A stretch of 64,000 nt of DNA, taken from NCBI RefSeq assembly GCF_003334405.1, contig NZ_QOWM01000003.1. One strand, written 5' to 3'. A program made the translations under genes and the position numbers. This DNA is from Escherichia coli (lineage in GTDB: Bacteria; Pseudomonadota; Gammaproteobacteria; Enterobacterales; Enterobacteriaceae). Positions 29,638-30,678 of this stretch are shown piece by piece. The notes beneath the pieces are model-generated. The model ran no database searches. It was not told the DNA's origin and saw only the letters and a program-made list of their open reading frames with translations. Position 1 is the first letter of the stretch, and every line of letters starts with the position of its first letter.

Positions 29638-30678
29638 ATGAAAAAAGTTTTATTACAAAACCATCCTGGGAGCGAGAAGTATTCTTTTAATGGCTGGGAA
29701 ATATTTAATAGTAATTTTGAACGGATGATTAAAGAAAATAAGGCCATGCTGCTTTGTAAGTGGGGGTTTTATTTAACATGTGTTGTCGCTGTAATGTTTG
29801 TGTTCGCAGCGATAACATCCAACGGTTTGAATGAAAGAGGCCTGATTACCGCGGGATGCTCTTTTCTTTATCTATTAATTATGATGGGGCTTATTGTTCG
29901 GGCCGGTTTTAAAGCAAAAAAAGAACAACTGCATTATTATCAGGCTAAAGGTATTGAGCCGCTCAGTATCGAGAAGTTACAGGCGCTACAATTGATCGCA
30001 CCTTATCGATTCTATCATAAGCAATGGTCTGAAACGCTGGAGTTCTGGCCGCGAAAGCCTGAACCTGGCAAAGATACCTTCCAATATCATGTGCTTCCTT
30101 TTGACTCGATCGATATCATAAGTAAAAGACGCGAGTCTTTAGAGGATCAATGGGGTATCGAAGATAGCGAAAGTTATTGTGCCTTAATGGAGCATTTTCT
30201 TTCTGGCGACCATGGAGCCAATACCTTTAAAGCAAACATGGAGGAAGCCCCAGAGCAGGTTATCGCCTTGTTGAATAAATTTGCTGTTTTTCCCTCAGAC
30301 TATATCTCTGATTGCGCTAATCATAGCTCCGGTAAATCCTCGGCGAAGCTAATATGGGCGGCGGAATTATCATGGATGATCTCGATATCAAGCACAGCTT
30401 TTCAAAACGGGACAATTGAAGAAGAACTGGCCTGGCATTATATAATGCTTGCTTCTCGAAAGGCGCACGAGTTGTTCGAAAGCGAAGAAGATTATCAAAA
30501 AAATAGTCAAATGGGATTTCTTTACTGGCATATCTGCTGCTATCGCAGAAAGTTAACGGATGCTGAACTTGAAGCGTGTTATCGTTACGACAAGCAGTTT
30601 TGGGAGCACTACAGTAAGAAATGCCGTTGGCCCATAAGAAATGTTCCGTGGGGAGCATCATCCGTTAAATACTCATAA
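29638..30678 (+). CDS. ynjI: DUF1266 inner-membrane protein YnjI
   Basis: ORF 29515..30678 trimmed to ATG 29638 (346 aa); hydrophobic segments near the N-terminus; AT-rich. Confidence 0.8.
   Translation: MKKVLLQNHPGSEKYSFNGWEIFNSNFERMIKENKAMLLCKWGFYLTCVVAVMFVFAAITSNGLNERGLITAGCSFLYLLIMMGLIVRAGFKAKKEQLHYYQAKGIEPLSIEKLQALQLIAPYRFYHKQWSETLEFWPRKPEPGKDTFQYHVLPFDSIDIISKRRESLEDQWGIEDSESYCALMEHFLSGDHGANTFKANMEEAPEQVIALLNKFAVFPSDYISDCANHSSGKSSAKLIWAAELSWMISISSTAFQNGTIEEELAWHYIMLASRKAHELFESEEDYQKNSQMGFLYWHICCYRRKLTDAELEACYRYDKQFWEHYSKKCRWPIRNVPWGASSVKYS

Follow-up and report, generated by a model that had tools for sequence, protein, structure and literature searches.

The annotated ATG start of ynjI, an AT-rich DUF1266 membrane-protein gene between topB and gdhA of Escherichia coli

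We analyzed ynjI, a gene on the + strand of a 64,000-nucleotide (nt) stretch of Escherichia coli DNA (contig NZ_QOWM01000003.1; hereafter the window, to which all unqualified positions refer). Its coding sequence (CDS) begins with an in-frame ATG at 29638, ends with a TAA at 30676-30678 and specifies 346 amino acids (aa). A 1.5-kb query around the gene matches complete E. coli chromosomes at 100% identity, and in RefSeq the 100%-identical genomes carry the same ATG-to-TAA interval as 'ynjI: DUF1266 domain-containing protein', with topB on one side and the convergent gdhA (- strand, 30795-32138) on the other. The name ynjI and the DUF1266 assignment, both given in the initial annotation of this DNA, are borne out by this RefSeq label and by two profile searches. 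The protein scores 671 bits against the NCBIfam equivalog NF008480 (PRK11380), for which the curated whole-protein cut-off is 386 bits, with residues 1-346 on profile positions 1-350 of 353, and its residues 167-338 align with model positions 1-175 of 175 of Pfam PF06889 (DUF1266; i-Evalue 3.8e-25). It is the same gene as E. coli K-12 ynjI (b1762), with no difference in length, annotated start or position between topB and gdhA. YnjI is a small, predicted inner-membrane protein, and the identity of its gene is already annotated and known.

The coding sequence and its start codon

The following features of the CDS and its 5' end are needed here; alignment A1 comprises 56 full-length relatives of YnjI at 18-80% identity.

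29638-30678, + strand: ynjI CDS, 346 aa plus TAA, start ATG 29638 (RefSeq annotation, NF008480, substitution rates against orthologue L007)
29515-29637, + strand: in-frame open extension, judged non-coding (GTG not conserved, no codon-position bias, frame shifted by a T7 variant)
29628-29632, + strand: Shine-Dalgarno-like AGGGA, 5 nt 5' of ATG 29638
29653-29670, + strand: N-terminal LQNHPG motif, codons 6-11 (alignment A1)

The ratio of nonsynonymous to synonymous substitution (dN/dS) between ynjI and L007, an orthologue from another species, is 0.08, which marks ynjI as a genuine protein-coding gene rather than an open reading frame (ORF) that occurs by chance. The initial annotation had described the gene as AT-rich, and this is so: its GC content is 0.413 and its third-position GC content (GC3) 0.418, compared with 0.53-0.55 and 0.55-0.59, respectively, in selD, topB and gdhA.

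The list of ORFs contains a longer + strand frame, 29515-30678, which opens with a GTG and would encode 387 aa. The stop codon of topB occupies 29508-29510 and the GTG begins 4 nt further on. An in-frame extension abutting topB had been pointed out before, together with the question, left without a claimed answer, of which start is used. The open frame is real, and six independent lines of sequence evidence favour ATG 29638 over GTG 29515. Judged on that evidence, translation of YnjI starts at the annotated ATG, because the frame upstream is non-coding DNA that happens to be stop-free and that carries the predicted topB terminator and ynjI promoter described below.

The conserved N-terminus of the family lies directly after the ATG. 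From 29638 the protein reads MKKVLLQNHPG, and Q7 and N8 of the LQNHPG motif are kept in at least 90% of the members of A1. All full-length orthologues at 58-80% identity begin MK(K/R/N), and most of the distant A1 relatives (18-30% identity) start within a few residues of the motif; one exception is P0027, a predicted product with about 20 additional N-terminal residues. The sequence CAGG(G/A)A before the ATG is conserved in four of four enterobacterial lineages, and nothing comparable to AGGGA was found as a Shine-Dalgarno sequence upstream of GTG 29515. Both allele B, the second allele of E. coli, and L007 have a GCG in place of that GTG. In L013, an orthologue at 58% identity, the GTG is absent and the in-frame open stretch is just 24 codons long, with no Met. 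Between the window and L007 the 123-nt extension differs at 34 positions, distributed 11/11/12 over the three codon positions, and has a dN/dS of 0.80 versus 0.08 for the CDS.

Length variation within the extension also bears on the longer annotations of this gene. The T8 tract at 29582-29589 is a T7 tract in other strains (e.g. L052, 259-265), and the T7 variant brings another upstream frame, from a GTG at 29526, into phase, giving products of 383 aa. Such 383-aa forms are found in gene calls and in one Shigella flexneri entry, and we attribute them to an AT-rich spacer without an in-frame stop, in which the T7/T8 tract sets which upstream frame looks open.

It is very improbable, in our estimate, that the cell makes a 387-aa protein from GTG 29515, with the distinctive peptide VNLSCYSSHILK..., whether as the true product or as an alternative one. 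In the window, and likewise in three other lineages, the frame stays open over 29506-30678, and some annotations and gene callers do use long (383-aa) forms. Those forms, however, rest on yet another frame and start, and the T7/T8 polymorphism shifts the frame. The GTG is missing elsewhere and has no Shine-Dalgarno sequence before it, the extension has no coding signature and contains what look like a terminator and a promoter, and the conserved N-terminal motif follows directly on ATG 29638. Little is at stake in this result, which confirms the RefSeq start of a y-gene.

The topB-ynjI spacer and the downstream repeats

The spacer between topB and ynjI (127 bp) contains three overlapping features on the + strand.

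29541-29548, + strand: core match TATTCTGA to the BglJ-RcsB box wwTTCykA (published motif; putative placement in the window)
29547-29589, + strand: intrinsic-terminator-like hairpin running into the T8 tract (29582-29589), with 16-bp stems at 29547-29562 and 29570-29585 (terminator scan)
29575-29602, + strand: weak putative sigma-70 promoter, with -35 TTGGAT at 29575-29580, a 16-nt spacer containing the T8 tract, and -10 TAAAAT at 29597-29602

The hairpin and T-tract inside the extension are conserved. Folding of the hairpin gives -18 kcal/mol (z -4.7, beaten by 0/200 shuffles), and it is kept in 4 lineages, with 98% of alignment cells paired and 2 compensatory pairs. It is probably the terminator of selD-topB. 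An Rfam scan of 29300-31000 returned no RNA family.

Salscheider et al. (PMC3950696) used a promoter-lacZ fusion and found that the BglJ-RcsB heteromer activates the ynjI promoter in the intergenic region. Mutation of the predicted box abolished activation, a product of rapid amplification of cDNA 5' ends appeared with BglJ, and the ynjI transcription start is 65-68 nt downstream of the centre of the box. The same study found ynjI expression moderately increased in an hns stpA mutant and the gene partly silenced by H-NS/StpA (PMC3950696). From its match to the motif, we infer that 29541-29548 is the published activator site. The match and the published distance together predict a transcription start near 29609-29613, just 3' of TAAAAT and ~95 nt downstream of GTG 29515. 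The putative promoter scores below the threshold of a consensus scan, as expected for a promoter that depends on an activator.

Four enterobacterial lineages that have reached saturation at the synonymous sites of ynjI show no change in ATTCTGAAATATCCA or TGGATATTTTT, both within 29541-29589, and the inner stem covaries. This invariance despite synonymous saturation suggests that terminator, activator site and promoter are superimposed, such that the short spacer may accommodate the topB terminator, the activator box, the weak promoter with its -35 region and the ribosome-binding site. The T8/T7 tract would be both the U-tract of the terminator and part of the -35/-10 spacer, and its length could alter termination as well as promoter strength.

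On the 3' side ynjI is followed by one further feature.

30699-30778, no strand: two inverted repetitive extragenic palindromic (REP) elements, a bacterial interspersed mosaic element (BIME), between the convergent ynjI and gdhA (inverted repeat, folding, second REP copy)

The two arms, 30699-30722 and 30755-30778, are 24 nt long and 83% complementary, and the pair folds with -50 kcal/mol (z about -4). A near-identical copy of one arm, GTAGGCCTGATAAGCG(T/A)AGCGC, is found at 58234-58255 on the - strand with one mismatch, where none is expected by chance. This second copy justifies the label BIME, as the interval consists of inverted intergenic REPs of a dispersed repeat family. The placement of ynjI between topB and a BIME, as initially proposed, thus holds on both sides.

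Variation at the topB-gdhA locus

The topB-gdhA interval (window 29349-30794; loci L001, L004, L049 and L050) shows an old polymorphism, with three states among 5,426 complete E. coli genomes: ~3,342 carry the K-12-type allele (allele A), ~122 the second allele and ~1,962 have no ynjI. The ynjI-less haplotype has a 76-bp topB-gdhA spacer, and the last 160 nt of its topB are divergent (65-70% identity). The second allele encodes a protein of 68% identity and is saturated at synonymous sites; its flanks are 97-100% identical (gdhA dS 0.05), and the break points fall near 29750 and 30730. Orthologues in other enterobacterial lineages occupy the same locus, which indicates that ynjI is old there. 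Judging from these sequences, recombinational replacement, rather than a recent gain, seems to have produced the states seen in E. coli. Positive selection between alleles A and B was considered and is unsupported, given saturation at synonymous sites and a moderate dN.

Protein architecture, family and candidate roles

The membrane-spanning segments that the initial annotation had placed near the N-terminus correspond to two hydrophobic stretches, called from Kyte-Doolittle 19-aa windows above 1.6, and are followed by the DUF1266 domain.

29749-29823, + strand: hydrophobic helix 1, about aa 38-62, predicted transmembrane (Kyte-Doolittle; model helix 36-60)
29839-29907, + strand: hydrophobic helix 2, about aa 68-90, predicted transmembrane (Kyte-Doolittle; model helix 66-104)
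30136-30651, + strand: DUF1266 (PF06889), aa 167-338, predicted cytoplasmic (E 3.8e-25; hhalign to YbeU/YbeR)

Both stretches are of bilayer-spanning length, with 19-aa means reaching 2.07 and 2.32. They are joined by a loop of ~6 residues, and K and R are enriched on both flanks, from which the positive-inside rule predicts both ends in the cytoplasm. We therefore infer that the pair forms a hairpin in the membrane and that the two termini and the DUF1266 domain probably face the cytoplasm. The ynjI product is listed as an 'inner membrane protein' on the basis of a global topology study (PMC3950696). AlphaFold2 with the family alignment gave an all-alpha model with a mean predicted local distance difference test score (pLDDT) of 92.4 and a predicted template modelling score of 0.89. 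The function of YnjI had been called unknown, with remote homology detection proposed as a check. This check yielded DUF1266/YnjI relatives and the cores of YbeR and YbeU; AFDB50 returned as its sole matches proteins labelled DUF1266 or YnjI, and PDB sequence searches with the single protein and with the profile gave nothing beyond hydrophobic or low-complexity noise.

Among 1.84 billion representative proteins, a search recovered 83 relatives, and a genome scan was run with 13 sequences. We define the YnjI-type architecture as LQNHPG, two hydrophobic helices, a juxtamembrane EQxxYY after helix 2, WSETLE and then DUF1266; the window ORF fits it with 340 bits on a hidden Markov model of A1. The most conserved A1 positions are polar or aromatic (Q7, N8, Q97, Y100, W130, E135 and P138), Q97 and Y100 of EQxxYY being near-invariant. 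The hairpin sequence is poorly conserved in the family, as expected of a plain membrane anchor. The family is distributed over Escherichia, Xenorhabdus, Pragia, Hafnia, Acinetobacter, several Bacteroidota and some Actinomycetota. YnjI-like proteins of Xenorhabdus, Pragia, Hafnia, Acinetobacter, Chitinophaga, Aquimarina and others share the full-length architecture at 18-30% identity, and the predicted folds superpose with TM 0.65-0.82. In the Escherichia clade there is an insertion of 11 residues and the arginine of the family D..R motif has been lost, and E. coli YnjI also departs from family residues at FDLWR (AELSW) and NYRLG (NSQMG).

The genomic contexts of the YnjI-like genes are unlike that in E. 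coli, and across 38 such loci we found no universally conserved neighbour; a short-chain dehydrogenase cluster was dismissed as a chance association in this analysis. Directly upstream and on the same strand, 8 loci encode a protein of 246 aa that has a single hydrophobic helix in its centre (L017 5249-5992; L019 175-906; L021 5028-5765; L026 5251-5982; L027 5262-6005; L025, L030 and L032). These loci belong to Acinetobacter, Aquimarina, Parapedobacter and a Bacteroidia metagenome-assembled genome; the protein is absent from E. coli and has no family match in Pfam or NCBIfam. In Xenorhabdus khoisanae and X. stockiae the YnjI-like gene is cargo of an integrative and conjugative element (ICE; L018 4219-9934 and L023 3516-9270), where it sits between STY4528-family and PFL_4669-family genes and an ICE-type topoisomerase III then follows. 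This echoes the topB-ynjI adjacency of E. coli and is probably a coincidence.

Within E. coli, the DUF1266 core of YnjI (aa 167-311) aligns by hhalign with those of YbeR and YbeU at a probability of 94-96%. All three are encoded by AT-rich accessory genes. In contrast to YnjI, YbeR and YbeU are soluble, 235 aa long and lack the hydrophobic hairpin, LQNHPG and WSETLE, and each of their genes overlaps a J-domain gene, whereas ynjI stands alone. In K-12 the overlap is 4 bp in both ybeR-djlB and ybeU-djlC, which lie beside hscC and two Sel1-repeat genes. The tandem DUF1266/J-domain pairs, each preceded by a divergent Sel1-repeat gene, occupy NC_000913.3 676711-681663 (L051 2712-7664) and look like a duplicated module next to hscC, for which no function is described in the searchable literature. 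YbeR and YbeU are translationally coupled to DjlB and DjlC, J-domain co-chaperones of the Hsp70 HscC. By analogy, the DUF1266 domain may be a non-enzymatic protein-interaction or adaptor module, which in YnjI would carry its own anchor and act at the inner (cytoplasmic) face of the membrane. We favour this role, weakly and with low confidence, because paralogy with YbeR and YbeU is the only functional lead.

Taken as a whole, the data are very probably best explained by a real but dispensable ynjI that encodes 346 aa from ATG 29638 behind a non-coding 5' extension. Several points weigh against parts of this explanation. The transcription start on the window is placed by the box match and the published distance, and a transcript reading through from topB might in principle include GTG 29515. 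There is no J-domain or Hsp70 gene beside ynjI or any of the 38 YnjI-like loci, so that a chaperone link comes from paralogy only, and searches of databases and of the literature on ynjI, b1762, DUF1266, PF06889, ybeU, ybeR, hscC and djlC gave no function, the BglJ-RcsB paper alone being informative. The conserved polar residues near the membrane interface (Q7, N8, Q97, Y100, E135 and the GxH motif) might just as well belong to a catalytic or ligand-binding site. Finally, ~36% of complete E. coli genomes have no ynjI, the gene is interrupted by insertion sequence IS1 in the pig isolate EC24 (NZ_CP182191.1, hit H1), IS10 lies at codon 310 in a heat-evolved K-12 derivative (PMC10044804), and several Shigella entries are truncated. 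It follows that the function of ynjI, whatever its nature, is dispensable.

A role of YnjI-type proteins in conflict between bacteria or with phage, either as immunity proteins against a toxin acting on the membrane or in the cytoplasm or as stand-alone defence effectors that damage the membrane through the two-helix hairpin, is unlikely in our judgement. The phyletic distribution is patchy and the family tiny (83 matches among the representatives), ynjI is H-NS-silenced and AT-rich, and E. coli shows presence/absence plus two deeply diverged alleles at one locus. The two Xenorhabdus species carry the gene as ICE cargo, and individual loci have suggestive neighbours (a YobI-type ATPase with a Sel1 protein, an SMI1/KNR4 protein, a PAAR protein and a NucS-like nuclease). 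Across the 38 loci, however, no toxin gene or defence partner is conserved nearby. The alleles reflect old divergence under purifying selection (dN/dS ~0.08-0.09 where measurable) and not fast diversification, and plasmid and phage collections hold no genuine copies, barring a mislabelled chromosome and a 1.9-kb fragment. PADLOC returned nothing significant and PHROGs no match. The weak PADLOC match of the hairpin region to a reverse-transcriptase-associated SLATT model (E 0.017, 13 bits) lies over the hydrophobic helices and is most likely compositional. As specific candidates, a SLATT effector domain was rejected on these grounds: YnjI resembles SLATT effectors in its two-helix membrane hairpin and this match but has no Pfam SLATT family match, partner genes or nucleotide-signalling or reverse-transcriptase gene nearby. 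A polymorphic-toxin immunity protein was rejected for want of a conserved toxin-like neighbour, those in E. coli being topB and gdhA. Also unlikely is the broader proposal that YnjI-type proteins are an undescribed membrane-anchored module, with a fold unlike solved structures, in conflict or envelope-stress responses, and that three ancient haplotypes (a null and two alleles saturated in synonymous divergence) are maintained in E. coli by balancing selection and not by neutral recombination.

It is rather improbable that YnjI is a membrane-associated enzyme or small-molecule binder in which LQNHPG, EQxxYY and WSETLE/GxH/D..R form an active site at the interface, acting on a lipid or lipid-linked substrate. 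The top conserved positions are polar or aromatic and cluster beside the anchor in sequence, and the confidently modelled N-terminal tail (mean pLDDT 88 for residues 1-10) suggests docking on the domain rather than disorder. Nevertheless, no catalytic motif can be recognised, E. coli YnjI has replaced family residues at the two positions named above, and neither the N-terminal nor the juxtamembrane motif is present in the soluble YbeR and YbeU.

Returning to YnjI as a dispensable, putatively membrane-anchored DUF1266 protein read from its annotated ATG, the family is useful for work on DUF1266 in that it is compact and full-length, with sharply conserved motifs and a confident model without a solved relative. 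In E. coli, the null, A and B alleles constitute a natural set for comparative phenotyping.
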